Below, piece after piece: positions 1,689 to 54,806 of a stretch of 64,000 nt of DNA; position 1 is the first letter of the stretch, and each line of letters begins with the position of its first letter. This DNA comes from Deltaproteobacteria bacterium (GTDB lineage Bacteria; Bdellovibrionota_C; UBA2361; SZUA-149; JADZAE01). Under the pieces are notes generated by a model, which saw nothing but the letters and a program-made list of their open reading frames with translations, did not search any database and was not told the DNA's origin. A program made the position numbers and the translations under genes. The stretch spans positions 39,622 to 103,621 of the forward strand of contig JADZAE010000077.1 of assembly GCA_020852715.1 (NCBI GenBank). Direction: 5' to 3'.

Positions 1689-4600
1689 ATGTTCGAAAAA
1701 GTAAAACCCTGGGTTGATTTTATTGAGCTGGAGCACAAAGTGCTTCAATTCTGGGATAAAGAGCAAATCTTCCAGCAACTAATTTCAAAAAACCAAAACG
1801 GCCCACGCTGGTCTTTTCTCGATGGCCCAATCACGGCCAACAATTCAATGGGAGTGCATCACGCTTGGGGGCGCACCTTAAAAGACACTTTTCAGCGCTA
1901 CCATGCCATGGAAGGCCAATGCCTTCGCTACCAAAACGGCTTTGACTGCCAAGGACTGTGGGTGGAAGTGGAGGTAGAAAAGCAGTTAGAGTTTAAGTGC
2001 AAAAAAGACATTGAAGCATTTGGCATAGAGAAGTTTGTGAATCTTTGTAAAGAGCGAGTTCACAAATATAGCAAACAAATCACCGCGCTGTCTCGGCGGC
2101 TTGGTTACTGGATAGACTGGGATAATAGTTATTTCACCATGTCCGATGAAAATAACTATACGATCTGGAGCTTCTTAAAAAAGTGCCATGAGCGCGGCTT
2201 GATTTATCACGACTATGACGTTATGCCCTGGTGCCCACGCTGCGGTACCGGTCTATCACAACACGAAATGGGCGAAGGCTATAAAGAAATTGCTCATACC
2301 TCAGTGATCGTCAGATTCCCGCTCACCGAGTGTGGAAACGAATATCTGCTTGTCTGGACAACAACTCCGTGGACTTTATCTTCTAACGTTGCCGTTGCCG
2401 TAAATCCGGATACAATTTATCTTAAAGCCCGACAAGGCGGCGACATTTTAATACTCGCCAAGGCGCTAGCCGATAAAGTGCTAAAAGCTAAAGGTGCCTA
2501 CGAAATCCTATCTGAGCTTCCCGGTAGCGAACTACTTAATTTGAAATACGCTGGTCCCTACGACGAATTACCGGCACAGGTTAAGAACAAACTACGGCAT
2601 AAAGTAATTGCCTGGAAAGAAGTAAGCGACGCTGATGGCACAGGCTTAGTGCATATCGCTCCGGGCTGCGGCAAGAAAGACTTCGCGCTAGGAAAGAAAA
2701 ATGGTCTGCTCGCGCTTTGCTCGATCAGCGAGGAAGGCATTTACGGCGAGGGCTTCGGCTTTCTCACCGGCAAACACGCAAGTTCAGTCGCCGAAGAAGT
2801 GGTAGCGAATCTTAAGAAAAAACAAATTCTCTACTCACAAGAAAAGTTCAAACACAGCTATCCTCATTGTTGGCGCTGCGGCACTGAGCTCTTATTCCGC
2901 TTAGTTAAGGAATGGTTTATTTCCATGGATAGCTGACGCTCTGAAATCATGGAAGTAACTAAGCAAATCACCTGGATTCCAAGTTACGGCAAAGAGCTGG
3001 AGCTAGATTGGCTTAAAAACATGCATGATTGGATGATCTCCAAAAAACGCTATTGGGGATTGGCGCTACCGATCTGGATTTGTCAGGACAAAAACTGTGC
3101 TCACTTTGAAGTTATCGGCAGCAAAGAAGAGTTTAAGGAAAAGGCAATCAGCGGCTGGCAAGACTTTGATGGTCATTCACCGCATCGACCATGGATAGAT
3201 AATGTCCTCATAAAATGTCCAAAATGTGGTGGCCAGGCCAAACGTATTCCCGATGTCGGCAACCCGTGGCTTGATGCCGGTATAGTTCCTTATTCAACAA
3301 TCAAATACAACTCCGACCAAGAGTATTTTAAGCAATGGTTTCCGGCTGACTTAGTGCTTGAATGCTTTCCCTGACAATTTAAGAATTGGTTTTATAGTCT
3401 GCTCGCGATGAGTACGATGATGGAGAATAAGCCACCTTTTAAAACTTTGCTTGGACATGCCTTAGCCAGAGATGAAAAGGGTGCCGAGATGCATAAAAGC
3501 GCCGGCAATGCCATCTGGTTTGACGATGCCACAGAGAAGATGGGCGTCGACGTTATGCGCTGGTTGTATTGCGGCCAGGACGCCACAATCAATCTCAACT
3601 TGGCTTTAATATCACCAAAGAAATTAGGGGAGGGGTAGTTAATACCTATTGGAATACTTACTCGTTCTTTTGTAACGTTGCCGCCGCTGCCAATTTTATT
3701 CCTCAGCGCTCAGCAAGCGAGCCCAAGGACAGGCCGGAAATAGACAGATAGATTATCGCCAAGCTCAATGCCTACTATAAGGTTGCCGCACGTTGTTATG
3801 AGCAGTGCGACACCCACGCTGTTGACAAAGGCGCTGAAGATTTTCTGGAAAATCTTAGTAACTGGTATATTCGGCTCTGCCGCCGACGTTTTTGGGGAGA
3901 GTTATCGGTAAATTCCGACGCGCTTAGCGCTTTTCAAACACTTTATGAGTGCCTGGAGGGATTAACGCGCATTGTAGCTCCGATGCTTCCGTTTATAACT
4001 GAGAATATTTATCAAAATCTTGTTCTCGGTCATGATAAAAATGCGCCGGCCAGTATTCATCTAAGCGACTTTCCAATAGCTAAAGAGGAATTGATTAACA
4101 CCAAGTTAATCGACGAGATGGACGCTATCAGAAAACTTACCACACTGGCTTTATCAGCGCGGGAAAATGCCAAAATAAAGATCAGACAACCTTTAGCTGA
4201 GATTGTTGTCGAGACCGGGGATGTTTTAGTAAAAAAAGCAGCCGATAAATTTAAAGATTTATCACTGGAAACGCTGAACATCAAACTGATGCAGATAAAA
4301 GAGGTCGGGGCTCTCGGCTACCAATTCAAAGTCCAACCCAATTACAAAACCTTAGGACCTAAGCTTGGAGCAGGGTTAAATAAAGTAATTGCGGCGATTG
4401 CCGCTCAGCCCCCCGCAGCGCTTAAAGAACAAATAGATAAACATAAAAGTGCGGCCCTGACTGTAGAAGGACAGTCTGTTACTATAAGTGCTGAAGATAT
4501 CACCTTTAGTATATTACCCATTGCTTCATACAGCATGGCTTCTGACGCCAAATCTGTTGTCGCGGTGAACACCACAATAGATGAAGTGCTGGCTCAGGAA

Positions 4601-4861
4601 GGGTTAATGCTTGATCTGTTGCGCAAGCTCCAAGAGCTGCGCAAAGAAACTGGCCTCGATATCTCTGATCGGATAAATCTTAGCTACAGCACAGAGTCTC
4701 AAGCACTAAAGGCGATGTTTAGCGTTTGGGGGCCATACATCAAAGACGAACTGCTTTGCGAAAAGCTTGAAGTTAGTAGTGACTTAGCTAAAGAACTTGA
4801 GGTGCTTGGAGAACGATTGGCCGTGCAGATCACGAAAATCAATAATCCGCAACACCCATAA
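1689..4861 (+). pseudogene. ileS: Isoleucyl-tRNA synthetase, type 2 (eukaryote/Thermus-like), pseudogene. Three in-frame stops (TGA 2934-2936, TGA 3372-3374, TAG 3749-3751) and a frameshift near 3585-3605. Catalytic motifs are degenerate.
   Basis: N-terminus MFEKVKPW...GPITANNSMGVHHAWGRTLKD, with the HIGH motif replaced by [38 protein letters not shown] region reads EMHKSAGN. The TAG replaces the W of the conserved DRWI motif (EIDR*IIAKLN). WNTYSFF appears in a shifted frame. The C-terminal domain is in ORF 3983..4861. Confidence 0.85.
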
Positions 4862-5046
4862 TTTCACTCGCATTTACACACCGTCATGGTATCATCCGCG
4901 CGTTACTGGAAATATAAAAGCTCATAATTCCGTCAGACGTAATCATATACACAAATGCATTCGTAGGGAGGGCCTTTGGCCATCCGCCGCCTCCGCATAA
5001 TCATGGTGGCATTCGGCAAAGCCGCACGGCATGGCGATCACTCAAC

Positions 5047-5432
5047 CTGAGGGCACGCACAGCGTCTGAGTCTTATACATAAGTTGTGAAAGTGGGCTTT
5101 TAAAAGGCTCTAGCGTTAGCTTCACAAATTTTCAAATTACAATGAGGCTTTGTGGAACGCGGACCCAGTCGCTCCGCAACATGGGTCGCGTTCCACAGTA
5201 GCTACGACTTTTGTCGCGTCATGCTATTTTGTAACAACATTAGAACCTGACATTCTTGGTGGGCAGCTTGTGTATAAGACTCAGCACAGCGTGCCGCTAC
5301 GTCATCTCATTAAATAATATTATTATGAGGGGAATTAAATTCATATGTTGCAGCGTTCATATTGTTTGCCGTGACAACATACGTTGTAGCGGCACGCTGC
5401 GCGTGCCCTCAGAAAACAAAATCACAATTATG
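5047..5432. repeat. Palindromic element (arms CTGAGGGCACGC(A/G)CAGCGTGCCGCTAC at 5047-5065 + 5285-5300, and 5406-5432) whose left arm is split by the MITE insertion.
   Basis: If the MITE and one TSD copy are removed, the left arm becomes a near-perfect inverse of the right arm. A related motif GGGCACGCTGCGCGTGGCCC occurs at 52769-52790. Confidence 0.5.
5066..5284. mobile_element. Non-autonomous miniature element (~219 bp, MITE) with IS50/Tn5-like 19-bp terminal inverted repeats and an 8-bp target-site duplication CACAGCGT.
   Basis: Left end ctgagtcttatacataagt; right end (reverse complement) ctgagtcttatacacaagc. Tn5 outside end is CTGACTCTTATACACAAGT. Flanking direct repeat cacagcgt at 5058-5065 and 5285-5292. 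No ORF inside. Confidence 0.6.
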
Positions 5433-5642
5433 CAAACCCGCATGCGCCGATTCCCCTACGCCCACCACCTTCTCCCCATCATGGTGGCTCATCAACTATG
5501 TAATACAGGTAAAATACTACAAAATTATCCTCCCTAACCCCCCCAATGTTTATTCATAACAATTCTTTGACAATCCGCTATACATTTAATAGAAACTAGC
5601 TCAGTTCTTTTTCATATAGGTAAATACGATTCTAACTCTCAT

Positions 5643-5692
5643 AGCCTCGCACTTATTAGCGGGAGGCTGTGAGATAAGCCAAGGTTTTAAAG
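5643..5692 (+). promoter_or_regulatory. Conserved leader element, copy 2: hairpin agcctcgc / gcgggaggct, then GCTGTGAGATAAG, then AAGGTTTTAAAG, directly before the RBS of the 5708..6130 gene.
   Basis: A 30-nt block shared with 329-357 and 17592-17613. Followed by AAAGGAG and the ATG at 5708. Confidence 0.45.
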
Positions 5693-5707
5693 AAAGGAGA
5701 AAAAACA

Positions 5708-6130
5708 ATGGAAGCCATTGACCGGCACTTAGCACTTTCCTGGGAGAGTTTCTTTCGGGTATTTACACAGGTGAAGGGAAACTGCACACAGGTCACCTCT
5801 GATCAATTTGTAGAATTGCTGCAATCTTTTCAAAGCGTAGTAACCACATTTGAACATGGGCCCACGCAGACCCAGATAGCAAATATGCTCAGCGCACTGG
5901 GGGCAAAAATAGCAAAGCTGGCCGTACAACTTGTACACAACGAACCCCATTCATTACTTTGTTGTCGCGCAGGCATGGATTTATTTATTTGTGCCCAACA
6001 CTGCCAGCTGCAAGCTGCTCGCATTTATGGCGACCAAGGCCATCATAAGGAGCAAGACGAGGCATATTTTGCTTTGCTTGGAAGTATTGGCAGCGCGCAG
6101 GTAGCAGCTTTGAAATTGGCCCGAACTTGA
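5708..6130 (+). CDS. Hypothetical 140-aa protein, family A, paralog 2.
   Basis: ORF with AAAGGAG RBS. Weak similarity to the 400..822 product. The terminator follows. Confidence 0.55.
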   Translation: MEAIDRHLALSWESFFRVFTQVKGNCTQVTSDQFVELLQSFQSVVTTFEHGPTQTQIANMLSALGAKIAKLAVQLVHNEPHSLLCCRAGMDLFICAQHCQLQAARIYGDQGHHKEQDEAYFALLGSIGSAQVAALKLART

Positions 6131-6135
6131 CCGAG

Positions 6136-6169
6136 AAAAGGTGGAGATTGTCGCTAATCTCCACCTTTT
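6136..6169 (+). terminator. Rho-independent terminator (aaaaggtggaga / tctccacctttt, 12-bp stem).
   Basis: Perfect inverted repeat plus a T-run, 6 nt after the stop at 6128-6130. Confidence 0.7.
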
Positions 6170-6236
6170 AGGATTTAGCTTATCTCACTAACTTTAATAA
6201 TTTTCTGCTTCCTACTAATCTACATGTTTTCCGTAA

Positions 6237-6676
6237 ATTCAAATTCGCAAATCCGTCACTATCTGCTCTTTCGTTCATGTAAACCTTGACGAACAAAAGG
6301 CGGCTTTTGGTTGTGCCAACACCTCCAACGATGATGTTCCCGATGATGAATGGACAAGGATATTCGAATCTCACAACGATTTAATTAGAACAGCGTTAAA
6401 CAAAGGAGAGACAGTTGTTCAAGAAACTGCCAGCACAACTCGAGAGTGGCGCGCTCGTGCTAGGAAAACAGCGCAGGATCTGGGTTTTGCTCCTTATGTA
6501 ATATTTGTTGATATTTCTGAGTCTGTTATCTGGAAAAGGTGGCAGCAAAACGCAATTAATCACTCCCGCTATCACACACCAAAAAATGTCCTCAGTGCTT
6601 ACATTCAGGAATTTGAAAGGCCTAGCGCTGACGAGAACGTGCTTCGTTACGACGAATCGATACCACTAATCAAGTA
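6237..6676 (+). pseudogene. C-terminal fragment of a P-loop kinase-like (AAA_33/zeta-toxin-like) protein. It has no start codon and no N-terminal P-loop.
   Basis: Open frame ...VHVNLDEQKAAFGCANTS...APYVIFVDISESVIWKRWQQNAINHSRYHTPKNVLSAYIQEFERP... with no ATG. The family assignment is tentative. Confidence 0.3.
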
Positions 6677-6828
6677 GCTAAATACTTTAAAGCTTACTGC
6701 TAGTTAATTTGATCAACGCACAAACTTCTTCTTCCTTAACCTAATAAATAGCTAATGCCTAACTAAACAATTTGTTATAAACTCTCGGTGTCGCATTTTT
6801 CTAATCCGAACATAAGAAAATTTGAAAT

Positions 6829-7327
6829 ATGAAACTCTTCAACAAAACCGTTCTGATGGCCACAGCTTTAGGGACGGTATGCCTGGGTGCTTTCGCATCT
6901 AATACGTCTGCCGAAAAAGTATGCGTCAATAGCAGCGGAGTTCTATATTATCGCTCTACTACTGCATGTCCGTCCGGGCAAAGAGATGTTACGGCATCAA
7001 TTATTGGACAAACTGGATCAACAGGCGCAACTGGGTTAATTGATCCGTCAGGTTGAGTCGTTTATACGAAATCTGATTTAGGCACTCTTTTCGATTCTCC
7101 TCCCTACACAGCAAGCGTTTCTAATGATTGCGTCGTTGATGTCTCTCCGGATTATTATATGTTGACATGGGGATTCACTTCCTCTGCTTCCGGAAGCGCC
7201 ACGCCAAGCAAAGCTAACTTAATTTATAATTCTTACTATGCTACAGGAATTGATGTGATGGTGACAAACAGCACCGATCAAACTGTGAACGTCAGAGTGG
7301 TTTGTTGCCCAGGGCCAGTAACTAATT
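6829..7327 (+). pseudogene. Secreted protein with a signal peptide and G-x-T triplets (GQTGSTGATG), interrupted by an in-frame TGA at 7054-7056.
   Basis: MKLFNKTVLMATALGTVCLGAFA... then TGA, then the same frame continues VVYTKSDLGTLFDSPPYTASV...VVCCPGPVTN*. A collagen/BclA-like short triplet stretch. Confidence 0.4.
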
Positions 7328-7731
7328 AGCCCCCCGATGACCGTCTGCCTGGTACCGGGTGCCAAAATAGACGCAGATGTCCGCTTGGTAGCGGGTGCTA
7401 GTATAGAGGCCAAGTGAGCGAACCAGCAAATATGGAACACAAAGCACCACACTCACCTTAGATCGACTTCATCACCTAAAATCAGGCTAACTACATCACA
7501 ATAAATTTGCTAATTGCCGCTCTTCAACTAAATTTAAATAGAGAACTCCACTAGAACTGCAAATTCCAACTCCAATGAGGCTTATCGGTAACCTGGATCT
7601 TCTTAGATGCGAAAATCAAGCGCCATAAAATTAAAAATATTATATTCTTAGGGGTTTGCGACTATCGGCGCCGAAGATACCGGGTGCTAGTTTGCGGCTG
7701 GGGTTTGAGGGGAGCGGGGGTTAATGTTTAG

Positions 7732-9648: not shown

Positions 9649-11555
9649 ATGTTAAGAAACTTGATTGACATCACAATTATTGTTCTGGTCTCGCTCGCCT
9701 GCTTTTCTAATACATTAGAAAATAGCTTTCATTTAGATGATTTCTACAGAGTGCAAGATAATCCAGGCATACAAAGCATAGCTCCTCTTTGGCGCCATTT
9801 CGTAGAGCCACGCCCCATGTCCACGCTCGATAGGATTAAGCAGTTTCGCCCATTATTGCCGCTAACGCTATCATTTAATTATTATTTTCGCGGTGAACAC
9901 ATAGCCGGTTATCATCTAGTAACCTTGGCTTTACAAACCATCACAACAATCTTTGTATTTTTATTTCACCTTGAGCTCTTAACACGCTGGGTCGGTAACG
10001 CCGACGAGCAAAAGGGACGGAGCAATGAACTCATCGCTTTTTTGGCGGCGCTTACTTTTGCCATTCATCCTGTTTCCGGAATACTGGTTAATTATATTTG
10101 TGCCCCCGACTTAATTCTCATGCAGTTTTTTATGATACCAACGCTTTTGATATATGCACGCATGCGCCGCAGGGTAGAAAACTCCCTGCTAAGCTGGATT
10201 AGTATCTTCAAACCAAACCTCCTTTCCATCTTGTCCAAAACAGACACGGCCATGCTCCCGGCAATTATCTTTTTATTTGAAATATTTTTAAACAAAAAAA
10301 CTTAAAAGAGATCAGCCCATATCTACAAACTCTGCCTATCGCTATCGCCATTTTTTGCTATTTTGCATATACCAAATATTATTTGAAATTTTCCGATTTC
10401 GAAAACGTCGTCAACACCCATGGAGCAGCATTTGATTATTTCAAACCTCAACTAGCTCTGCATCTTTTTTATTATCTACGCAATTTCTTCTGGCCCTTCT
10501 ATTTGCGGCAGTTACCAATGATCGACACCGAAACAGCGCTATTTCACGCACAAACCGTAATTGGTGCTATTTTTATACTCCTAACATTATTGATTGCGCT
10601 GCGCGCTTGGAACAAACAGCCAATTATTTCCTTTTGTATATTATCATACTGGGCACCACTTTTCCCGGCAACTTCATTTCTGCCGTTTCATCACTTGATA
10701 GTTGACTATCGGCCATATCCAAGCAGCGTGTTTTTATTTCTGCTACTTGCATATTTAGCCCAGCGATATTTGCCCAACAAAGCATTTATTTCAATAATGC
10801 TAAACTTTATTGTTTTCATAGCTGCCGCCAGCTATTTTCATAACTACAATTGGCGCACTGAGGCAACCCTTTGGACACAGAGTGTGAAACACGGAGCCGA
10901 CGCCACAGCACACATGAATTTAGCAATGTCAATTAAAGATAGAGACGATCCGCGTGTGGAGTATTATTTCCGCGAGGCTTTAAGAATGGCACCGAGGTTC
11001 GCTCTAAGGAATATCAATTTGGGGCTATTATTGCTCGATAAGAATAAGTAAGAAGAGGGGCTCTGGTATTGCCGAAACGCTGTTACGCTAGCCCCGGGCT
11101 GGGGGCAAGTCCACTATTGGCTTTCACAATGCTATAGCAAAGTAGGGGATAGTAAAAATGCATGCTACTCGGCGCTAAGAGCAACCCGACTTGATTCGAA
11201 AAATATCAGTTATCTTCATCGCGCCGCTTTTTTAGTCCAGCAATTTAATGACTACAAGCAAAGCTTAAATCTCCTCCAAAGCGTACCAAATGGCTACCAG
11301 GACGCCCTTTTTCTCAAAGCTTTTGCTGCACAAATGAGTAATCAAAATCAATTAGCGATTAACGCCTATACAGAACTTCTGAACCGACAACCCGAACATA
11401 TGCAGGCCAACTTTAATCTCGGCTATACTCTGATGATAGAAGGGAACTACGCAAAAGCAATTCCATACTTTCAAAAAGCCCTAGAACTCAAACCCGACTA
11501 TGATAAAATTCATAGTTATCTTAGCCGCTGCGCAGATGAGCTAAAGACTCGCTGA
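9649..11555 (+). pseudogene. TMTC-like DUF1736 + TPR-repeat GT-C glycosyltransferase, disrupted by a frameshift near 10306-10382 and an in-frame TAA at 11049-11051.
   Basis: FHLDDFYRVQDNPGI...YRPLLPLT...GYHLVTL (DUF1736 signatures). TPR repeats continue through the TAA (LLLLDKNK*EEGLWYCRNAVTLAPGWGQVHYWL...) into ORF 11334..11555. Confidence 0.75.
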
Positions 11556-11757: not shown

Positions 11758-13113
11758 CGCCTAACCTCGCAACTGACGAAAATGGTATTACTAGGAAGTT
11801 ACAAAAAATATATTCTCAAATTATCCGTGGGGTATATTCATAACAAAAGCCACAATAGTGTTAGTGGGCAAAGCAATAACGCCACACTGATAACAACATT
11901 TAACCATGCCGAAAACCCTTAAACTTGCTCCAAACATTTCAAAAACAACACTTGTGCCCAGATACTAATAATAATCTAGATCACCGCAAATGCTGCTAGA
12001 GCAAATCCTGACGCTGGACCTGATCTAGTAAATAAATCTTGCCTAAACCAAGCAATTTCTAAAACAATAAGCGGTAATATCTAAATTACTGGAACGCTAC
12101 TCCATGCCATGACCGCTCTAATATTGTCTTTTGATCCTGTTCCGCCTATCCAAGTTCCGGTTCAACGAATTAAGATGCTAGCAATATATAGCTAAATTAT
12201 TCCACCTAAAGGGCCACTAACGGCATAACCAAAAACTATCATCGGCCATTCCAGAGTGTCTCCTAAATCCCTGACGCTGGCGCGATCAATGGCCTTGCTA
12301 AATCCATCTAAAGCTGCCAATAATAAAACAAACCGAGTAGGGTTTGTATCTATTATCAGCTAAATAGTAGCTCGTGGCTTAAGTCAGATAGATATCCAAG
12401 GATTTAATGTTTGCTCAACTGTGTTTTCCATTTTAATCTCTCAATCAGTTAAACAACCAATTAATTAGACTTAAATGCCACAACTGGGAACAACGTTTAA
12501 CACTGACATAGCATCTGCTCCACAAAGCTATAAAATGCTCTGAACGCTAACATCCAACCATGGAGAAGATAAGTTATAATGGGCACGCCACGCCTTGCGC
12601 TTATTTATTTGTCCTCTATATAGCATTATGCCCGATAAGGTTTCTTATCAGGCATAGCCCTCGGCTGCCCGGCTATAGATAGACATATATAATAGTAGTC
12701 CGGTTTTCGTCCAAGGGGTAAAGTTAAGACTTTTTTGCCCCAAATCAAAAGGGCAAAAGTCACAGAGGACCTCCAAGCAAAAAAACAATCGGCATGTTGT
12801 GCGCTCCATTATGTGCGCGAGTAACTACTAAGCACTCTGACACGACTAGCGCACGACATGCCAAACATGAATTAATCATTTGCTTAAGACGCCAAAATCG
12901 TAGCCATAAAAATTAACGGGCACCCTAAGCAAATATATATCATTCCCAGGAAATAAATTATTTTTTTACTAAAAAGCACAAATGCTTTCTATCTTTGTCC
13001 TAAGGGAATGGTTATCTCCATTGATCGCTACTTAATTCGAATAAGAGCCCTTACATCAATGGCATCTTGCCTACGCCATGAAATATTCATCTCAATATCG
13101 GGCCGACATTCAT

Positions 13114-16149: not shown

Positions 16150-16878
16150 TTAATTGACAAAGATTGCTAGCTGTACACGGAACCGAATGCTGAGAACTCC
16201 GTAGATAGAAATGACAAACGAGAAGTGAAACAATTCGCAAGAGTCGCGACAACAATTTACGGTTTGTCTTAAAAATCTGGTTACTCACCGGAATAAGTGG
16301 GTAAGAATGTAAAAACTTCCTGGAAATCGTAGAGCGTGAGTTGAGAAAACAAACGCAAGCGCCAACGGCAATTCACGGGCGACCGGCGGGTGACCGCAAA
16401 ATGCCATCGGCAATGGCACCGCATATTCTGTCGAAATGTTTAGCTGATAAAGTAGGACATGGCTTTACCCGAGACACCAAAAAATACGCCGTCATTGTAG
16501 ATTTAGCCATATTCCTATGGGCTTATCAGTCGCATGTACGAGTTTCTTCATTATGTGCGGAACTCAGGCGAAGGCAAACATCGGCAAACAACGATGCTCA
16601 GAATGTTTCTAAACACTTGGATAACCAAAATTATACGCTCCAAAATAGAGCCAATGAAGCACATGGCTCGCCAGATTAGACACCTCCAGCCACTTATTTT
16701 TAATTGGCTTACGGCCAAAAAACTATTCTCTTCCGGAATCGTTGAAGGTTTTAACAACAAAGCTAAAGTCACGCTAAAAAAAGCCTACGGATTTCACACC
16801 TTAAATGCCGTGCAAATCGCGTTATTTCAGCAACTTGGAGCTTTACCTGAACATCTGCTCACCCATACTTTCTGGTGA
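16150..16878 (+). mobile_element. ISL3-family transposase remnant (C-terminal ~240 codons, in several frames). Pseudogene.
   Basis: C-terminal ...SSGIVEGFNNKAKVTLKKAYGFHTLNAVQIALFQQLG is typical of the ISL3 transposase C-terminus. Upstream pieces are in other frames. The N-terminal half is absent. Confidence 0.6.
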
Positions 16879-16943: not shown

Positions 16944-17445
16944 CTACTCCAATCCGAAGAGCAAAGGCGCCTTTTCCGCCTCCAGTCCACGATTCTCTTG
17001 CGGATAACCAAGATTATGTTGCGAAAAATAAAACGGAGTTCGCACAGACCATTCCTCAGAACGAGTGGCCCGAGGTGTGCCCCAAATAAGACCGGGGGAT
17101 TTTATCCCCGGCCGTATAAAATTATCCCAGCTGTGAATTGGTGAGCCACTTAAATGCAACGCTGATCCCAAGACCAATAGCAACAGGGAGAAACCCCAGG
17201 GCCAAAAAGAGCCGCGTATAAACCGAAAGCCATTCTCTAAACGCTGATTATTCATATTGTAGCTGGTAATAAAGCACCGTGGTAGCCAGATAATTGATTA
17301 AGCGTGAGGCAATTACGAGTAGCAGAAGTAATATCATTAGAGGAGCAAAAATAAAACTGCGCTTGCCCCAGGGGGCCAATAATATGCCCACTAAGTCTTC
17401 TTTTACAGGCACTATTAGCACATCATGTAATAACGAGCTATGCAT
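16944..17445 (-). pseudogene. Hypothetical membrane protein interrupted by a frameshift near 17248-17255.
   Basis: Two overlapping ORFs in different frames with hydrophobic segments (LMILLLLLVIASRLI..., WPWGFSLLLLVLG...). Confidence 0.3.
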
Positions 17446-17635: not shown

Positions 17636-18721
17636 CTAAGTGACTATCATCCGTAGAATATTCTCCGGGCAAACATGACTACAAAGAGAGCAGCCGTCGC
17701 ATAAATTATTATCGATAAGTATCGGCTTTAGAGAAACTTTTCGCGAAAGTGATTCGTGTGTAGATATTGAGCCCACAGCTTTGCCGCACATTTCCTCAAT
17801 TGAGCTAAATCCCTTGTCGGTCATGTAATTTGTAAGGCCGGCGATCATGGGCCGAATTATCTCAAAACCATTAAGCATCACGGCTGTGCAAACTTGAACC
17901 ACGTAGGAGCTGGCAGAAATATTCGATGGCGTCTTTATAGTCAGAGATACCACCGAGGCCGTGAATAGGAAGTTTAACCTTTGCCGCAATCTGCGAACCA
18001 CATCTTAGGCCAATTGGCTTAACACTTTGTCCGGAATATCCACCGTAGGTAGAATAGCCCGAGACGTTGGGTAGCGGTTGAAACGTATCGATATCTACCC
18101 CCATTAAACACTATACTGTATTAATAGCGGCAAGCGCATCGGCGTTTCCCTCTAAGGCAGCTTGAGTAATGGAGACAATATCCATAACATTTGGCGTAAA
18201 CTTTACGATTAACGGGAACTTTACTTCCGACTTAATCGCCCGGGTCATTTCTCTCTCCAAAGCAGCGTCTTGGCCGATGGCTGCACCAATATGCTTTTCC
18301 GGCATGCCGTTTAACTCAAGCGCATCGGCACCGGCATCAGCAACTGCCTTTGCTACCCCGATCCAGCTTTCTATATTGCTGTGCCCCATAATGCTGGCAC
18401 TGAGCATCTTTCCGGGAAAATCTTTTTTTATTGCTGTTATTTCGGCTAACCAATAGCCGAGACTTTTCTGCTGAGTAGCTCAATATTTTCAAATCCAATT
18501 AATTCGTTTTTTGCGCTTTTGATCGTAGCAAAACGCGGAGATATGTTTTCAATAGTTAAATCATCGGGTGTAATGGTTTTAATAACAGCCCCTCCCCAAC
18601 CGTTAGCAAGATCGCGTCTAATCATTTCACCTGTGGCAGTGGGCGGTCCTGAAGCTAACAAAAAAGGATTTTCATATTCTAGTCCATTGTGAGTAGTTCT
18701 AAGTAAACTTGAAGATGGCAT
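17636..18721 (-). pseudogene. Dihydropyrimidine/dihydroorotate dehydrogenase-family protein with a C-terminal 4Fe-4S ferredoxin domain (PreA-like). Split into four ORFs by two frameshifts and one in-frame stop.
   Basis: NPFLLASGPP... (18721 frame), ...ELNGMPEKHIGAAIGQD...KFPLIVKFTPNV (18407 frame), ...LPIHGLGGISDYKDAIEYF, ...CDGCSLCSHVCPENI. Reading frames run 1, 2, 2, 1. Confidence 0.7.
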
Positions 18722-20353: not shown

Positions 20354-20751
20354 TAGCCAAACAAATCCCTTCTACCTTTTGCTTCCATACATTTATCGAA
20401 GCAATTAGGATAAGTGGTTTGATCAAAGGGGCCTGTTCGTGGTTTTTTAAGGCAATCGCTAACGCAGAATTTACATCTTTCAAATTCCGGCTGGGCAACG
20501 AGCTTACATCGCGCCGCGCTATTGTTTGTATTTTCGCAACTTACAAAATGGCGACAACGGTCCTCGGGGGTGTAATGTTTCGTGCACATCGGGGGTTCTG
20601 TGTAAAGTTTGCAAGTGACATCATAACCGTGACAGGGGTCAAGTTCACAGCGCGGCTGGGCTTGGGTAACGGTGGCGACTAAGTTGATAAATAGGCTTAT
20701 AAATACTCTCAGGGCCAATTTATTGTTTTGCATAATTAGTTGTTTAGACAC
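20350..20751 (-). CDS. Secreted Cys-rich small protein (10 Cys) with a signal peptide. Tandem paralog of 20736..21083.
   Basis: Shared pattern C-x-(L/I)-x-PCHG-x-D-x-x-C...MCT...Y...D-x-CR-x-F-x-x-C...C-x-L...C-K-x-CV...C. N-terminal hydrophobic leader. Confidence 0.55.
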   Translation of the reverse strand: MSKQLIMQNNKLALRVFISLFINLVATVTQAQPRCELDPCHGYDVTCKLYTEPPMCTKHYTPEDRCRHFVSCENTNNSAARCKLVAQPEFERCKFCVSDCLKKPRTGPFDQTTYPNCFDKCMEAKGRRDLFGY

Positions 20752-21083
20752 CCGGCTTCGCAGGTAAAGGCAGCCATGGGATCATCAGTATTATTTCTTT
20801 CGCAGTTTTCCACACAGACTTTACAAGTAGTAAATTGGCTCGACATACTAAGCGCGCAAATGCCATTTTGTTTTTGGCAAGTGGCGAATTGGCGGCAATT
20901 ATCGCCGAGCTGATACTCTTCCGTGCACATTTGTGGTTCATCGAGCTCGGTGCATTGAATATCAAGTCCGTGGCAGGGAGTAATTGCGCACTGTTTGGTG
21001 CTATCATCGCCGGAGGTGCCGCCACAGCTTAAAAGAAAGATAAAAGAAGCTAAGACGGCGATGGATAAATTTCTATGTCGCAT
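20736..21083 (-). CDS. Cys-rich small lipoprotein (lipobox LLSCGG). Tandem paralog of 20350..20751.
   Basis: MRHRNLSIAVLASFIFLLSCGG... The mature domain has the same Cys spacing as its neighbour. It overlaps the neighbour by 16 nt. Confidence 0.55.
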   Translation of the reverse strand: MRHRNLSIAVLASFIFLLSCGGTSGDDSTKQCAITPCHGLDIQCTELDEPQMCTEEYQLGDNCRQFATCQKQNGICALSMSSQFTTCKVCVENCERNNTDDPMAAFTCEAGCLNN

Positions 21084-21281
21084 GATCGCCTTTCGTTTAG
21101 TTTATGAAGTTATTATGATTTGCTTGCTATGCAAGTCGCACGTTGATCATATTAGTCCGTTAGCGGGAATATAAGCAATTTGTTTATTTATTTTGCAAAG
21201 GCTTAATATAACTAGCTTGCTTATGCCTCTAAAAGCGGCCTAAACTCTAAAAATTATTAGAATTTAGCCGATAATGACTTT

Positions 21282-22739
21282 ATGTGGGGTTCTTTCAAAA
21301 TATCTTGTGCGGTTCTGTTAGGAGTCTTCAGCCTGGGTGTAATTTTTATCTTATCCCCTGCTCTAGCTCAAGCCGATGCGCTGGTTAGTGAGGTCAATAG
21401 TAACGGCCGGATTATCACACTAACTGTTAACTATAAGCCGAGCAAAGAAGCATGGGCTAATCATATTACTACTCAGGCAAAGATATTTTTGCAGGCGTTT
21501 GAACCGTATTTGGGAATTAATTTGCCGGCGTGGGCAAATAACCAGGTGGTTATTAATGGCTGCGACAGTTGTCAGGCGCGGCTTGATGGTGGACAGATTT
21601 ATGTGCAGTAAGTTGATACGCTTAAGTCTAAGCCAGCGTTGGTGATGCATGAGTTGGGACATTACTGGTATTATTATTGTCAGAACTCTGCGTGTCAGGA
21701 GTGATTGGTTGAGGGTATTACTAGCTTTATTTCGGTGATGCTCAGACGTGCGCATTTGTTGCCTAATGACTTTAGTTGTCGGGATGAAGTTAATCGTTGG
21801 TGGGGTTATGATTGGAATCTAACACCAGGCACTTCGTTAAAAGATGTTCCGCTTTGTCCGTTTGATGAGAGCAAGCGCAGTTTGATTTATTATAAATCGT
21901 TTCGCCTTCAGCATTTGATTTATTTTACTTTGGGAAAAACTCGTTACATCACCTTTTTAAGGAACCTAATCAACAAGCAGTTAAAAACTAATGCTGGAAT
22001 CATTGCTGAGCTTAATATATTGAGGCCAGTGGACTTAAATACTTTACTTACGGGTTGGGTATTTGGCAGGCAGTATTTGGGTTACAAGATGAGCGATTTT
22101 GCCAAGGATTACGATTCGGATGGTTTATCAAAGGTAGAAGAAATGGCGCTCGGGCTTTCGGATAATGTTTATGATGCTGATCGGGATGGAATTCCGGACG
22201 GTGCGGAGATACGAGCACTTAGAAATCCTAGAAAAACTGATGCTGATGGAGTTTCGCAGCTCTTGCGCTATGGTCCGTTTATTGACGGTGGGCAGCGGGA
22301 TTGGACGTATTTTAGTTATTCTACGGCGGATGATTCGGTCGATGATCAAGTCGGCCGGAGCTGGGCTGACATGACGAGGATGCAATATTATATTCAGGGG
22401 GGATATTTATTTATCTTAGTGAAGACAAGAGGCTACCCACCGCGTTCGTCCAATGTATTTTTTGATTTATTGATCGATACAGATAGGGACTATTATACAG
22501 ATGTAGAGTTTGCCTTCTTGCTAAATAATAAAGCTTACCCGTGGCAATATGTGGTGGATATAGAGAAATCATCCAATCCCACTGCTCTTCGCGCCGGGAT
22601 AGCCCGCTACATAGAGATGAAGATTCCTCTCTCCAAAATCCCAGTTTCCGACTTCCAAGTCTTACCGATTATACGTAACAGCCAAACCGCCACCAACCTA
22701 GATCAGTGGAGCACCTGGATCCCTACCAGCCTCCCATAA
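21282..22739 (+). pseudogene. Secreted HExxH zinc-metalloprotease-like protein (signal peptide, HELGH). Interrupted by an in-frame TAA (21609-21611) and TGA (21702-21704).
   Basis: 21282 and 21705 are in the same frame: ...GGQIYVQ*VDTLKSKPALVMHELGHYWYYYCQNSACQE*LVEGITS... C-terminal region has Asp-rich Ca-binding-like repeats (DSDGLS, DADRDGIPDGAE). Confidence 0.55.
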
Positions 22740-22757
22740 CGCCCCCGCCAACCCCCG

Positions 22758-22853
22758 CTGGTGTAGGGCACCAATGATAGCAATCCACATCTAATTCTTA
22801 TAAGGGGTTACCTAACTTACTCACCTTGGCTTCAGGTGCAGGGCCCCAGCGGG
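22758..22853. repeat. REP-like palindromic repeat cluster A: two inverted units (gctggtgtagggcaccaa 22758-22775; caggtgcagggccccagcggg 22834-22853).
   Basis: Family consensus near CTGGTGCAGGGCACCA (GGTGC-N3-GCACC palindrome). It recurs in clusters B, C and D and at about 42008-42030. Confidence 0.55.
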
Positions 22854-23036
22854 AAGCGAGAACTCGCCTAGTTTAAGTGAAATAATTTTAGCTATGTGGT
22901 ATCTCGAGTTGCCTTTTTATTAGATTTAGAATATTAATGAAAGGTATTGATATTTTCAATGCCCAGCTGGGGGCATGGTATTCAAAGAGGTTTTGGTTTT
23001 CCGAGTTTTGGAGATCCAGAAAGAGGTAAGTAAGAA

Positions 23037-23465
23037 ATGGGAAGAACAGAGGTGTTGTTCGTTGAGGAATGGGGATGTCGGTTCAATTGTTTTCGGACGG
23101 CATTGAAAGCATTGGAGTTACCGGGGGTAACCTTCGATGCGGTGCAATTGCTGCCCAATGGTATGTATCAGATTAATTTTCGAGATCGTTTGCTTGGCGC
23201 TAGAGAAATCAGCGACATCCAGAATGATCTGCATCGACGGTTTCCTGACATCGTGATTCTTTCTCTGAGAAATTATGATCGGCTGAAAGAGGTATTCCGT
23301 TCTCTTAATTTTCCCGAGGATCGTTTGATATTGACCACTGATACTGCGATGAAAATCGGCGTTTCTTGGGTTGATATTCAAAAAACTGAGATCGGAAAGA
23401 GCCCTGCCGTTACTGAGACTTTTCTGGCTTTGCTAGATGAAGTTACGGTTGGCGCGGCAGTATAA
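23037..23465 (+). CDS. Hypothetical protein (142 aa).
   Basis: Intact ORF followed by a strong terminator. No domain I recognise. Confidence 0.45.
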   Translation: MGRTEVLFVEEWGCRFNCFRTALKALELPGVTFDAVQLLPNGMYQINFRDRLLGAREISDIQNDLHRRFPDIVILSLRNYDRLKEVFRSLNFPEDRLILTTDTAMKIGVSWVDIQKTEIGKSPAVTETFLALLDEVTVGAAV

Positions 23466-23480
23466 GCGAAGGTTCATACC

Positions 23481-23506
23481 GAGCCACCACTAGTGGCTCT
23501 TTTTTT
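23481..23506 (+). terminator. Rho-independent terminator (gagccac-cacta-gtggctc + T7).
   Basis: Perfect 7-bp stem plus a T-run, directly after the 23037..23465 ORF. Confidence 0.75.
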
Positions 23507-23532
23507 GTACGAAAATACAAATTTCGTTATCA

Positions 23533-24536
<1,004 letters not shown>

Positions 24537-24553: not shown

Positions 24554-25918
<1,365 letters not shown>

Positions 25919-26071
25919 TTACAAACCAAAAGCTTTGCACCCGGGCGGGGTTATATAGGTGGCTATAGTATATGATATGTTGACTTAAACAAGATCCTGC
26001 TATGTTTAGATTATAAATTTCTTAATAATGGGAAGCTCTAAATGTATTTGGATTGGAAATATACGACAGAA

Positions 26072-26111
26072 GGAGGTTTTGAACCTATACGGCCCCATAG
26101 CCAAAACCTCC
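26072..26111. repeat. Hairpin H1 (GGAGGTTTT-N22-AAAACCTCC), 15 nt downstream of the stop of minus-strand gene 26126..26540.
   Basis: The same arm sequence occurs at 26792-26833 after the paralogous cassette. Confidence 0.5.
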
Positions 26112-26125
26112 TCCCCCATTTCGTT

Positions 26126-26540
26126 TTACTTTGCGGCAGTTACAGCGAGTGGCTGTCGCTTTTGCTCGAGTAATTTGGACCTCAATACACTGAGTTCCTG
26201 ACTGAGCTGGAGCTTCTCCTCCGTAAGCAAATCAACTTCTTCATTAGCAGCTTTGATTTGCTTTTCTACCTCCTCCCCTTTCAGCGAGTGAGCGATGGCC
26301 AGCCTCTGCCATTTGGGAAAGTCATACCACTGCGTACCTTCGTCCATCTTCCGCACATACTCGCCGGACGTGGCATAGTGGTTCATCATTTCCTTATGCA
26401 GTTGGGTTACCCGGCTATAGCCTGCAGAAATCTGCTGCTCCTTCTACTGCACAGCCAACTGAGCCTTCTGCAGCTCAGTTTGCTTTTTTGTGCCATTTGA
26501 TTTGGCTCCATTGCCTTTGATACTGCCATTGCTTGTAATC
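26126..26540 (-). pseudogene. Small coiled-coil protein (cassette 1). Start at 26540 with a GGAGG RBS. In-frame TAG at about 26445-26447.
   Basis: MITSNGSIKGNGAKSNGTKKQTELQKAQLAVQ*KEQQISAGYSRVTQLHKEMMNHYATSGEYVRKMDEG...LLEQKRQPLAVTAAK. The ORF track shows only the part after the TAG (26126..26389). Confidence 0.4.
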
Positions 26541-26565
26541 ATTTATAACCTCCAAATAATAATAA

Positions 26566-26620
26566 TCCTAGCACGCTAGGCTTAGTAGATGAGCTGCACC
26601 TACTAAACCCAGCACGCTGA
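26566..26620. repeat. 55-bp palindromic element P, copy 1 (CCTAGCACGCTAGGCTTAGTAG-N11-CTACTAAACCCAGCACGCTGAT), 26 nt upstream of the cassette-1 start codon.
   Basis: An imperfect copy of the perfect palindrome at 27291-27345. It sits in the 5' UTR or promoter. Confidence 0.5.
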
Positions 26621-26791
26621 TAATATTAGAGTGGCGGTTAAATTAAATTTACCTATTGTTCCAACCTTAACTCCTTCTGCTTACGTAAGCAGAAAATCTG
26701 AACTTCTTAGTTCAAATCTTTCTTCTACCAATCTTATAATCTTCGTTTTTACTAGCTATCTGATAAAACAAACTAACAAATAATACTGCAG

Positions 26792-26833
26792 GGGGAGGTT
26801 TAAAACCAATTGCCGAGTGGCGAAAACCTCCCC
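26792..26833. repeat. Hairpin H2 (GGGGAGGTTT-N21-AAAACCTCCCC), 14 nt downstream of the stop of minus-strand gene 26847..27263.
   Basis: Paralogous to H1 at 26072-26111. Confidence 0.5.
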
Positions 26834-26846
26834 TTGCAGCATCTGC

Positions 26847-27263
26847 CTAAGCGCTCGTTGTTTCGCCTAGTATCCTCTTTGGCTGCCTTCTGGCCGCTGA
26901 GCGGGCAAGCCTTCGAATGGCAGCCCGTTGTTCGGGCGAATTAACCTTCGGGGCCGGATTGGCTGCCGTAGCCTTTTCGAGCATGGAAATCTCCATCTCC
27001 ACTCGGGCCAATGCCCTCTCAGAATCAGCGACGTTCCGAGAAAGCGCCTCCTGGCGCTCTTTGCGCGTCTTGAAGCCGGGTGGCATCTTAATAACGCACT
27101 TCAACTGGTCAAGGCGAATCAAAACTCTCCCCGGCGAAGAAATCGGAGCTCTCCGCAAATCCGCCAACTCCTTTTTCCAAGCAGCTATCTGCTCCTTCAG
27201 CAGATTTTTGGCCCTACGTAATGCTGGCATAGCCTTCGGTTCCCCATTTGCTACTGCTTCCAT
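26847..27263 (-). CDS. Small coiled-coil protein (cassette 2, 138 aa).
   Basis: GGAG RBS 7 nt upstream. MEAVANGEPKAMPALRRAKNLLKEQIAAWKKELADLRR... Antisense plus-strand ORFs here are probably spurious. Confidence 0.5.
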   Translation of the reverse strand: MEAVANGEPKAMPALRRAKNLLKEQIAAWKKELADLRRAPISSPGRVLIRLDQLKCVIKMPPGFKTRKERQEALSRNVADSERALARVEMEISMLEKATAANPAPKVNSPEQRAAIRRLARSAARRQPKRILGETTSA

Positions 27264-30417: not shown

Positions 30418-30502
30418 ATGGCCAAAGATACAATAGGCAGCCTTTTAAGAATTTTGATATGACCTACATGGCATTAATAAAGTCTTTTGAGGAATTTTCG
30501 TA

Positions 30503-31124
30503 ATGGACAATAGCACGATTATAGAAAAAATAAGGGATCATATAAGAGAAAAGTTCTCTGGAGAGGGATCTGGACATGACTGGTGGCATATTTATCGAGT
30601 GTGGAAAACTGCTGTTGCTATTGCTCAAAGAGAAGGCGCCGATTTATTTGTCGTGGAATTGGCCGCTCTTTTACATGATATTGCTGATTGGAAATTCAAT
30701 GGCGGAGACGATGAAGCAGGCCCTAAAATGGCAAGAGAATGGTTAGAAGGATTATGCGTAGAAGAATCAATTATCGTTTAAAGGCGCTGGGGTGAGCGCC
30801 TGTATGGCGACATTAGAAGGAATAGTTGTACAAGATGCCGATCGCTTAGATACCATCGGGGCTATCGGAATTGCTCGGGTATTTGCATACGGGGGGCATG
30901 CTAATCGCGAGCTCTATAATCCAGAGGAAAAGCCAAGCCTTCATCAGTCATTTGAGCAATATAAGAACAATAAAAGTTCTTCTATTAATCATTTTTATGA
31001 AAAGCTCTTACTTTTAAAGGACCTTATGAATACAAACACTGCAAAGGTATTAGCCGCAGAAAGACATCAATATATGAATGCCTATCTGGATAGATTCTTC
31101 CAGAAATGGGACGGAGTAGCGTAA
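30503..31124 (+). pseudogene. HD-domain phosphohydrolase (YedJ/YpgQ-like) with a single frameshift near 30762-30781.
   Basis: HDWWHIYRVWKTAVAIAQ...LLHDIAD (frame 2). Then IVVQDADRLDTIGAIGIARVFAYGG continues in frame 0. Confidence 0.65.
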
Positions 31125-53212: not shown

Positions 53213-54806
53213 CTAATACTTAAACTGTTGCAGTAATTCCTGCAAAGCCGCAGCTCTTTGCGCTAGGTCTGTAGCAACTTGCTGGGTAAGAGTTGCTACG
53301 CTGGCCGCTTGCTGCGAGGTCACAGATACTTCTTTGATACCTGTAGCAATCTCGCTACTGCTGATCGCTACTTCGGCAGCGTTACCGGAAATCTCTCGAG
53401 TGGTGACACTTTGCTCCTCGACAGCACTGGCAATCGTCGTTGAGACATCATTGATCTGCTCAACAATGGCAGTTACTTCGTTTAACGAGTCAATAGCCTC
53501 ATTGGTCCCAGCCTGTATGTCCCGCACACGTCTAGTAATTTCCTCAGTTGAATGCGATGTCTGTTTAGCCAATTCTTTTACTTCGTTAGCAACAACAGCA
53601 AAGCCTTTCCCCGCCTCTCCAGCACGGGCGGCCTCAATGGTAGCATTTAAAGCTAACAAGTTGGTCTGCTCAGCAATGGCGCTAATAAGGTTCACGACAT
53701 TCCCAATTTCCTTGCTACTAGCATCCAGCCTAGCAATCTTATCATTAGTTAATTTTACTGCGTGTAAAGATCTTTGTGCAATTTCTCGCGCACCAGCAGT
53801 ATTATTAGAGATCTCCCTAACCGCCTCTGCCATCTGCTCAGAAGCAGAAGCTACAGTATTAATGTTGGTATTTACTTGCCCGGCAGCAGAAGCAATTATT
53901 TGGGTTTGTGAGAAAGCGTTAAGAGCACTGCTATATACATACTTTGCCCTTCTGATTTCAATTGAGTCGCAGCATCTGCCAAGGCCACAACATTTTGCCC
54001 AATCTGTGATACGGCAGACTGAATCCGAGCAACAAAAGCATTAAACCAATCAGCAACTTGTCTTAATTCATTTTTACTCTGCACATTTAGTCGCCTAGTT
54101 AAATCTCCTTCTCCCTGGGCAATATCACGCAAAGCGGTAATAACAGTAGCCAGCGGTCGGGTAATGCTGTTACTTAAAAATATACCAAGTATAAAAACAA
54201 TACATATGCCCACTAGAATTAATCCCCAGCTTAATTTCCGCATGAGGTTAGCATCTACTTCCGCAGCTTCCACCCGTTCTCGAGCCTTGGTATTATGAAA
54301 CTGGACAATTTGTTCAAAAGCAGCAAAAAGTTTATTGGAAGCGTTTTTAAACTCATTACTTAATTGGGCATTAAAGTGCGTAGTGCTGTCGATATCTTTT
54401 TTACGGGAGATAATCATCTCCTCACCAGTTTTATCCCAGGCAGCAAATGCTTCTTTCACTTCATTATATAAAGCTTCCTCTCCTTCCAAAAAAGGTGTGG
54501 CCAAAAATTCATCACGGTAACGGTTATAATCTGCACGTAAGGACAAATATTTATCGTGAATTTTTCAACCAACTCCTCAGTATTTGACTCTAAGCTGGCG
54601 CGAATAACAAAAGCTCGCATATCCTTAGCCTGCCCATCCATTTTACTAAGCTCAACAGTGGCCGGAAAATTTTTTCACGCCATCTTGTGAAAGTTATCCT
54701 ACAGCTGGTTTAGCGCGTAAGAACTGGCAAACCCTAAGATGATCAATAAGATCGTGGACACTACCGGGCCCAGCAAAACACGCGATCGAAACGAAGTCAG
54801 CGCCAT
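53213..54806 (-). pseudogene. Methyl-accepting chemotaxis protein (4HB sensor, TM, HAMP, MCP signalling domain). Disrupted by two in-frame stops near the N-terminus and at least two frameshifts.
   Basis: C-terminal ...[27 protein letters not shown]... (53213..53833). HAMP/sensor portion in ORF 53896..54546. N-terminus MALTSFRSRVLLG...NQL*DNFHKMA*KNF... Confidence 0.8.

Follow-up and report, generated by a model that had tools for sequence, protein, structure and literature searches.

A probable pseudogene of a native type-2 isoleucyl-tRNA synthetase with intact non-canonical signature motifs in a pseudogene-rich metagenome-assembled genome

Introduction

An isoleucyl-tRNA synthetase (IleRS) gene that is interrupted by stop codons raises the question whether it is truly broken and, if so, whether a native housekeeping gene or a dispensable accessory copy has been lost. 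We address this question for a 64-kb chromosomal part (the window, meaning the whole stretch analyzed) of a metagenome-assembled genome (MAG) of an uncultured Deltaproteobacteria bacterium with NCBI locus tags IT292_*; the contig has a length of 124,277 bp and carries the proteins MCC6933715-746. In an initial annotation, the ileS gene located here had been described as type-2 and decayed, with erosion extending to its HIGH and KMSKS motifs, and had been interpreted together with a nearby decayed trpS gene as a resistance-type accessory paralogue.

Results

The ileS gene and those of its features that bear on the question are the following:

1689..4861, plus strand: ileS pseudogene (IleRS type 2, non-canonical GXHH subclade) with 1057 codons once repaired
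1851..1862, plus strand: GVHH at the class I signature position (HxGH), residues 55-58, intact
2934..2936, plus strand: in-frame TGA replacing an invariant Trp (MD.WR), inferred TGG>TGA
3372..3374, plus strand: in-frame TGA replacing the invariant Gly of ECFPGQF, inferred GGA>TGA
3486..3500, plus strand: EMHKS, the clade-typical KMSKS loop, intact
3600..3601, plus strand: 1-nt deletion, TT versus the expected Phe codon TTY in LNFGF, resulting in a -1 frameshift
3749..3751, plus strand: in-frame TAG replacing the invariant Trp of DRWI, inferred TGG>TAG
4265..4837, plus strand: C-terminal DUF5915 domain (PF19302), 123.8 bits, residues 95-285 of the last ORF

The classification as a type-2 gene proved correct. 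The repaired translation is a full-length homologue that belongs to the TIGR00392 family (isoleucine--tRNA ligase) with 741.9 bits at a cut-off of 621.4, and its best homologue (P0001), an intact protein, shares 71% identity over 99% of the length. In a comparison with PDB sequences the best match is the type-2 enzyme (IleRS2) of P. megaterium (8c8w/8c8u; 694 bits for 8c8w), while 1ile from T. thermophilus reaches 616 bits and the IleRS1 structures 8c9f (P. megaterium) and 1ffy (S. aureus) reach 307 and 265 bits, respectively. The product is therefore classed as an IleRS2; IleRS1 sequences are more distant from it than those of IleRS2 and eukaryote-like enzymes. The same class is indicated by the DUF5915 C-terminus, an architecture that the window gene shares with its IleRS2 homologues and that is present in all 120 homologues listed for it. 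Upstream of ileS, neither a T-box nor any other leader was found with Rfam.

The two motifs that had been taken as eroded turned out to be characteristic of the subfamily. All 40 intact homologues carry G[VI]HH at the HxGH position, the stretch MGVHHAWGR being shared, and all 40 likewise possess EMHKS or a close variant thereof, which aligns column for column with the KMSKS of P. megaterium IleRS2 (PDB 8c8w). G/AXHH, defined by Gly or Ala at the first and His at the third motif position, has been established as a non-canonical signature of functional, catalytically competent housekeeping IleRS2; IleRS2, above all in the GXHH form, confers resistance or hyper-resistance to mupirocin, and a genome can contain it in addition to another IleRS gene (Brkic et al., 2023, Nat Commun 14:5498; PMC10485003). 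With its GVHH the window gene falls into this subclade, just as do the IleRS2 of D. radiodurans and S. griseus and the GVHH mutant of the P. megaterium enzyme (PDB 8c8w). It differs from these in that the copy is inactivated and in that its clade has EMHKS in place of KMSKS; the string 'MHKS' is absent from the main text of Brkic et al. (2023). Finding GVHH or EMHKS in an IleRS is therefore no indication of decay: both are normal active-site signatures of the subfamily and characterize a large IleRS2 subclade that is functional. This subclade has been linked to mupirocin hyper-resistance in the literature, and it is in this correction that we see the chief value of the present analysis.

The remaining lesions that had been reported for ileS were all recovered. 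The uninterrupted reading frame expected of a functional aminoacyl-tRNA synthetase (aaRS) gene is lacking, as three in-frame stops and one frameshift occur, the latter at a position where all homologues compared have the Phe of LNFG; as had been noted, the TAG falls exactly on the Trp of DRWI, which is invariant in the homologues. Furthermore, 10 of 228 strictly invariant columns are changed, compared to 0-4 in each of the 40 intact homologues. The proposed G:C>A:T transition pressure fits the changes inferred at near-invariant sites, ten out of 15 of which are G>A or C>T. On these grounds the ileS reading frame appears to be that of a truly broken gene, on which constraint is relaxed.

The second aaRS gene in the window exhibits the same kind of damage:

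23533..24536, minus strand: trpS pseudogene, nearest to D. radiodurans TrpRS II, with a 1-nt deletion and two TAA codons
23935-23937, minus strand: TAA, KMSKS reads KRG*S
24127-24129, minus strand: TAA replacing the Gln of YPVSQAADI
24242-24246, minus strand: 1-nt deletion in a T run (T5/T6)

The TAA inside the KMSKS motif, noted in the earlier description of a decayed TrpRS, is accompanied by a further TAA and a deletion, and seven of 98 invariant columns deviate (0-4 in intact homologues). D. radiodurans TrpRS II (PDB 2a4m, 1yi8) is aligned end to end by the window sequence with E = 2e-108 and 365 bits, far above the canonical bacterial TrpRS structures, which mostly score ~80-140 bits. In contrast to TrpRS II, the window copy has suffered the Gln-to-stop change, KRG*S and the frameshift. 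TrpRS II is an auxiliary paralogue in D. radiodurans. However, TrpRS of the window type are widely annotated as ordinary tryptophan--tRNA ligases in Myxococcota, Chlamydiota and Oxalobacteraceae, and likeness to TrpRS II is therefore no proof of an auxiliary role.

Decay in the window extends well beyond these two genes:

9649..11552, plus strand: membrane protein with C-terminal TPR repeats, in three ORFs, with a break at ~10306-10382 and a TAA at 11049-11051
11838..12431, minus strand: Yip1-domain pseudogene, seven internal stops and one near the C-terminus, no frameshift
17650..18720, minus strand: decayed DHO_dh/4Fe-4S (PreA-like) gene, with one or more frameshifts in addition to internal stops
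30491..31121, plus strand: HD-domain hydrolase, with a frameshift near 30762-30778 that divides the gene
53213..54546, minus strand: methyl-accepting chemotaxis protein, broken in two, with HAMP and MCPsignal encoded in separate frames

With ileS and trpS, at least seven genes are decayed or split, and two gene remnants are present in addition, so that the occurrence of two aaRS pseudogenes within 25 kb, which had been taken as a sign of redundant second copies, loses its special significance. Three of the internal stops in the Yip1 gene replace invariant Trp residues, two Gln, one Glu and one lies at a variable site; 23 of its 80 invariant columns deviate (0-12 in intact homologues). The DHO_dh match (91.7 bits) is confined to one frame and Fer4 lies in a different one. 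Six-frame Pfam scans gave no matches for 20354-21704 and 25895-27730, nor for the plus strand of 22740-23532, and yielded AAA_33 alone (~6270-6623) for 4862-7731. A coding-potential scan based on codon usage discriminated too weakly to be of use for pseudogenes.

The distribution of the lesions bears on the possibility that the organism's ileS is really intact and that the stops and the frameshift represent sequencing or assembly artefacts or the consensus of a defective minority. The source is a MAG. Moreover, short T runs are the site of the indels in ileS (TT/TTT) and trpS (T5/T6), where an assembly error is indeed also possible, and an A7 run is close to the TPR-gene break. On the other hand, ileS, trpS and Yip1 together carry 14 disruptions in 4.8 kb, whereas none is found in ~28 kb of intact, Pfam-supported genes in the neighborhood (Poisson P = 6e-6 for zero disruptions under the pooled rate), and because of this clustering a uniform assembly error was rejected as unlikely. 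The lesions in the three genes are mostly substitutions (12 nonsense lesions versus two frameshifts/indels) rather than homopolymer indels, and the damaged genes are also over-rich in missense changes at invariant sites, including trpS with its KRG*S. No shared sequence motif, sought as a sign of methylation-type base-calling error, was apparent around the stops on inspection. We regard an artefactual origin of the ileS lesions as very improbable.

Still more remote is the possibility that the stops are decoded by reassignment, suppression or programmed read-through and frameshifting and that a functional IleRS is still made. Some bacterial genetic codes assign Trp to TGA, and two of the three ileS stops replace Trp. 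However, TGA and TAG both occur in frame in ileS, and the second TGA stands for Gly and not for Trp. Intact Pfam-supported genes in the window end in all three stop codons (15 TAG, five TAA and five TGA), and the only tRNA present in the window is Val-GAC, that is, a suppressor tRNA is not encoded there. Moreover, the ileS stops are accompanied by a frameshift and by surplus damaging missense changes, and in-frame stops are confined to genes with other damage, as expected for use of the standard code. Recoding of TGA as Trp or Gly was consequently rejected; like uniform assembly error, it is unlikely because intact genes terminate in all three stop codons and ~28 kb of neighboring genes are intact.

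The comparison with orthologues that had been suggested in the initial annotation speaks for the native origin of the two genes. Both ileS and trpS are intact in the nearest relative, which is represented by contigs in the ENA samples ERZ28615627 and ERZ15185584, with ~1x coverage and on separate scaffolds, so that their assignment to one organism is by inference only. Identity between the window and this relative amounts to 96% for RplT, 93% for CarD, 73% each for PheS and PheT, 71-73% for IleS and 63-64% for TrpS. The gene order rplT-pheS-pheT-GNAT-carD is syntenic; on the contig of the nearest ileS homologue (L001), no synteny with the window was seen beyond ileS itself. Since the divergence of ileS matches that of the syntenic pheS and pheT genes, vertical, native descent is preferred.

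These results make the interpretation as resistance-type paralogues questionable. It would hold that ileS and trpS are accessory, horizontally acquired mupirocin- and indolmycin-type resistance genes that came to be no longer needed and were lost by decay, the primary copies being retained. In its favor are the mupirocin resistance conferred by IleRS2, above all in the GXHH form, its possible occurrence as a second gene, and the likeness of trpS to the auxiliary TrpRS II. The MupA and MupB models (NF000257 and NF000258) are matched by the window IleRS with 666.2 and 636.8 bits, respectively, and the gene resembles mupA and mupB, which are plasmid-borne in staphylococci, in being type-2 and similar over the full length. 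However, both scores remain far below the NCBIfam 'exception' model cut-off of 1900 bits, such that the protein is not assigned to either family, and, unlike MupA/MupB, the window gene is chromosomal, non-functional and orthologous to the relative's intact ileS. Both its IleRS2 clade and the TrpRS type are common as ordinary annotated aaRS across many phyla, and numerous neighbors that do not encode aaRS have decayed as well. We consider acquisition as resistance paralogues unlikely. Judging from sequence divergence, ileS and trpS look like native housekeeping copies and not like recently acquired resistance determinants.

Discussion

In our view, the window ileS is probably a real, moderately recent pseudogene of a native IleRS2 that arose after selection had relaxed, with trpS and neighboring genes affected likewise. 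Selection on the native ileS would have relaxed first. The gene would then have accumulated mainly G:C>A:T substitutions, three substitutions giving rise to stops, as well as a single-base deletion. The same process would have struck trpS too, along with at least five further genes, and would account for the two gene remnants. Because a cell cannot do without IleRS and TrpRS activity, working replacements for ileS and trpS are to be expected elsewhere in the genome. Presumably the native copies became redundant through such replacements, which could be an additional TrpRS and, for instance, either an IleRS1 or a further IleRS2; this would amount to gene displacement in progress. A second ileS or trpS was not seen within the 64-kb window, and none of the ten NCBI-sourced close IleRS2 clusters belongs to the source MAG according to their accessions; a scan of genome contigs yielded solely relatives with ~41-63% identity. 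If an intact replacement is present in the same genome, the remnants described here would be direct evidence of ongoing aaRS displacement.

A more far-reaching version is that native IleRS2 and TrpRS have been caught mid-decay through a recent double displacement by xenologues or, far less likely, through dependence on a partner organism, and that the decay, rich in nonsense lesions and G:C>A:T changes, could also reflect a mutator or deaminase-like regime instead of ordinary drift. Examples would be the seven internal stops without any frameshift within the 0.6 kb of the Yip1 gene and the excess of stops over indels (12 versus two) across the three pseudogenes. We think this version improbable. 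We adhere to the simpler statement that ileS is a pseudogene of an ordinary kind within a MAG that is rich in pseudogenes.

Pseudogenes have accumulated under a GC-to-AT mutation bias in, for example, Mycobacterium leprae and Sodalis. The window resembles these pseudogene-rich genomes in its mosaic of intact and decayed genes, with pseudogenes of differing age, as well as in the presence of IS fragments and of substitutions biased toward G:C>A:T. It differs from them in that intact genes of two-component, chemotaxis-type and biosynthetic function point to a free-living lifestyle, in that two of its pseudogenes encode normally indispensable aaRS, and in that nonsense lesions predominate over frameshifts. 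The MAG should thus be flagged as unusually rich in pseudogenes, which bears on quality assessment and on conclusions about lifestyle.

Lesions and subclade of the ileS gene

A full-length isoleucyl-tRNA synthetase (IleRS) is encoded at positions 1689-4861 (+) of the window, and its translation is broken four times:

2934-2936 (+): in-frame TGA at a Trp invariant in an alignment of 40 homologues
3372-3374 (+): in-frame TGA replacing the invariant Gly of ECFPGQF in the same alignment
3600-3601 (+): one base absent, lost from the Phe codon of LNFG; AAC TT GGC TTT stands where LN-F-GF is expected
3749-3751 (+): in-frame TAG at another Trp invariant in the 40 homologues

The repaired product (1057 residues) scores 741.9 bits with TIGR00392 (ileS; cut-off 621.4 bits), and thousands of full-length IleRS matched it in a search of 5.8 billion proteins. 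The closest, P0001, is 71% identical across 99% of the query, while the next-best matches reach 52-57%. Translation, model score and full-length homologues thus confirm the coordinates and lesion list of the initial annotation.

The same annotation had taken GVHH and EMHKS for eroded HIGH and KMSKS motifs. This is not borne out by alignment with the 40 best intact IleRS homologues, all of which carry MG[VI]HHA.GR at the site of MGVHHAWGR and EMHKS or a close variant at that of EMHKS. Furthermore, the non-canonical G/AXHH signature, that is HxGH with positions 1 and 3 swapped, is published as functional. It occurs in 86 of the 163 bacterial type-2 IleRS (IleRS2) in the tree of Brkic et al. (2023, PMC10485003); natural G/AXHH enzymes show normal catalytic efficiency, according to the authors without compromise of the housekeeping role, and the mupirocin Ki is up to 1000-fold higher with this motif. 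The top solved-structure match is the GVHH-form IleRS2 of Priestia megaterium (8c8w, 694 bits), in which GVHHA lies opposite GVHHA and KMSKS opposite EMHKS, whereas IleRS1 structures reach only 265-307 bits. A C-terminal DUF5915 domain is present in the query and in all 120 homologues among the matches listed. On sequence grounds, the GVHH motif, EMHKS, the match to 8c8w and DUF5915 together place ileS in the GXHH subclade of IleRS2 with catalytic signatures normal for that clade. Compared with KMSKS, EMHKS (3486-3500, +) has Glu for the first Lys and His for Ser, subclade-wide (P0001-P0040) and alongside GXHH. GVHH is shared with the IleRS2 of Brkic et al. (2023), whereas the string 'MHKS' is absent from the main text of that paper. 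The system is of a known kind and nothing about it is new in kind: the gene is a dead member of a known enzyme subclade, and the metagenome-assembled genome (MAG) that holds it is rich in pseudogenes.

Recoding, assembly error and relaxed selection

Stop-codon recoding was rejected as all three stop codons terminate intact genes (TAG 15, TAA 5 and TGA 5 among 25 Pfam-supported intact genes of the window) and the sole tRNA within the window is Val-GAC. Uniform assembly error was likewise rejected: the lesions are gathered in particular genes, with 14 disruptions across ileS, trpS and a Yip1-domain gene (4.8 kb) versus none across about 28 kb of intact genes, a zero whose Poisson probability under the pooled rate is 6e-6. 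Any one indel on its own could be an error, because the sites lie in short T runs (TT/TTT in ileS, T5/T6 in trpS) and a TPR gene is broken close to an A7 run. Homopolymer-type error cannot account for the nonsense substitutions or the surplus of missense changes, and decay of ileS, trpS and the Yip1 gene is nonsense-dominated (12 stops versus 2 indels).

In a leave-one-out count over 228 strictly invariant columns, the ileS query departs at 10, and the 40 intact homologues depart at 0-4 each. Minimal nucleotide changes inferred from the query codon at 15 near-invariant positions comprise seven G>A and three C>T, the remainder being G>T, T>C or double changes, which upholds the mutational direction from G:C to A:T proposed initially. 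Such a bias is usual in bacteria. Stops and a deletion at invariant residues, the excess of invariant-column changes and the G>A/C>T majority indicate that ileS is a real pseudogene bearing the signature of relaxed selection under G:C>A:T bias.

Intact and decayed neighbours

The surrounding contig looks like core chromosome, in which decayed genes are interspersed:

Intact: argG, gcvP, gcvT, folD, minC, MinD/ParA-type ATPase, carD
Intact: rplT, pheS (534 residues), pheT (561 residues), thrS
Intact: proC, DAHP synthase, maf, ftsW/rodA
Intact: two-component and HDOD signalling genes
9649-11552: membrane/TPR gene in three ORFs
12431 to 11838 (-): Yip1-domain pseudogene, seven internal stops and one near the C-terminus, no frameshift
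About 18720-17650: decayed DHO_dh/4Fe-4S gene, stops and a frameshift
24536 to 23533 (-): trpS pseudogene, 1-nt deletion, TAA for Gln in YPVSQAADI, KMSKS as KRG*S
30491-31121: frameshift-split HD-domain hydrolase
54546-53213: MCP broken between HAMP and signalling domains
Fragments: N-terminal part of DUF7657; part of an ISL3 transposase

The lesions of trpS, including the TAA within KMSKS, substantiate the decay claimed for it earlier; it departs from 7 of 98 invariant columns (intact homologues 0-4). For the Yip1 gene the figure is 23 of 80 (intact homologues 0-12), and its internal stops fall on three invariant Trp, two Gln, one Glu and one variable site. In this gene of about 600 nt the nonsense-to-indel ratio is very high, with in-frame gaps of 6 and 3 residues relative to homologues. 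The pseudogenes are of unequal age, Yip1 being far more decayed than ileS. Since other decayed genes of differing age are interspersed, the aminoacyl-tRNA synthetase (aaRS) pseudogenes are part of a general, long-running build-up of dead genes that is not aaRS-specific.

Mobile-element remnants lie at 16522-16812 (+), 16974-17207 (-) and 31605-32441 (+); a C-terminal ISL3 transposase fragment adjoins the truncated DUF7657 gene, and a seemingly intact ORF of 278 residues has an IS200-like Y1 transposase domain. Long ORFs are lacking at 4862-7731, 20354-21704, 22740-23532 and 25895-27730, where six-frame searches (plus strand only for 22740-23532) gave no Pfam match other than AAA_33 at about 6270-6623; these stretches may represent unknown genes or pseudogenes of great age. 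Mirrored ORF pairs occupy both strands at 20747-21029 and 26850-27300. An intergenic 47-nt direct repeat (62065-62111 and 62519-62565, 85% identity, 454 nt apart) terminates in a hairpin-like GTTTCC-GATGA-GGAAAC.

Native or accessory origin

P0001 and the closest TrpRS, P0169 (63% identical), both stem from ENA sample ERZ28615627. The TrpRS contig was found again in ERZ15185584, where contig L084 carries rplT-pheS-pheT-GNAT-carD in the gene order of the window. This relative is of low coverage, with contigs L001 (ileS homologue), L082 (trpS), L083 and L084 in ERZ28615627, ERZ15185584 and Logan run ERR4682416; we infer that these separate contigs, at roughly 1x coverage, represent one organism.

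Protein identity between the relative and the window
RplT: 96%
CarD: 93%
PheS: 73%
PheT: 73%
GNAT: 52%
IleS: 73% (N-terminal 687 residues), 61% (C-terminal part), 71% overall
TrpS: 63-64%

At 71-73%, ileS has diverged just as much as the syntenic housekeeping genes pheS and pheT, and in the relative ileS and trpS are both intact. This favours vertical inheritance, with the decayed ileS and trpS as the lineage's native copies. Recent import as resistance-type paralogues, a role for the genes suggested initially, is correspondingly disfavoured, also by the MupA and MupB models, to which ileS is similar (666 and 637 bits) but falls far short of the 1900-bit cut-off. Among solved structures trpS is closest to D. 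radiodurans TrpRS II; this likeness does not establish an auxiliary role, because ordinary tryptophan--tRNA ligases of this type are annotated in Myxococcota, Chlamydiota and Oxalobacteraceae, among others.

Neither IleRS nor TrpRS activity can be dispensed with, and in its metabolism and regulation the organism otherwise seems complete. The simplest account is therefore one of functional replacements elsewhere in the genome, e.g. IleRS1 or another IleRS2 plus a second TrpRS, which would render the native ileS and trpS redundant and leave them to decay under G:C>A:T pressure. The redundancy suggested at the outset thus likely applies with reversed polarity, the native copies and not accessories dying. 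Ten close NCBI IleRS2 clusters, checked for a second copy, included none from the source MAG, for which the relative would be the natural comparison genome. The decay of two essential class I aaRS genes within one chromosome segment is mildly interesting, as are, residually, the clade-wide EMHKS form of KMSKS and the predominance of nonsense lesions.

Other aminoacyl-tRNA synthetase genes

Five aaRS genes (ileS, trpS, pheS, pheT, thrS) lie between 1689 and 57240, a seemingly high density for 64 kb, and on L082 trpS has two aaRS neighbours, one of class I with leuS-like Pfam domains and one of class II. The intact pheS and pheT (43298-46598, -) encode products whose lengths are close to those on L084 (532 and 563 residues), and PheT matches the Pfam B5 and CLM domains. 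In bacteria, the PheRS alpha subunit is usually close to 340 residues long and the beta subunit close to 800; with a longer PheS and a shorter PheT, the window subunits look like a putative archaeal/eukaryotic type.
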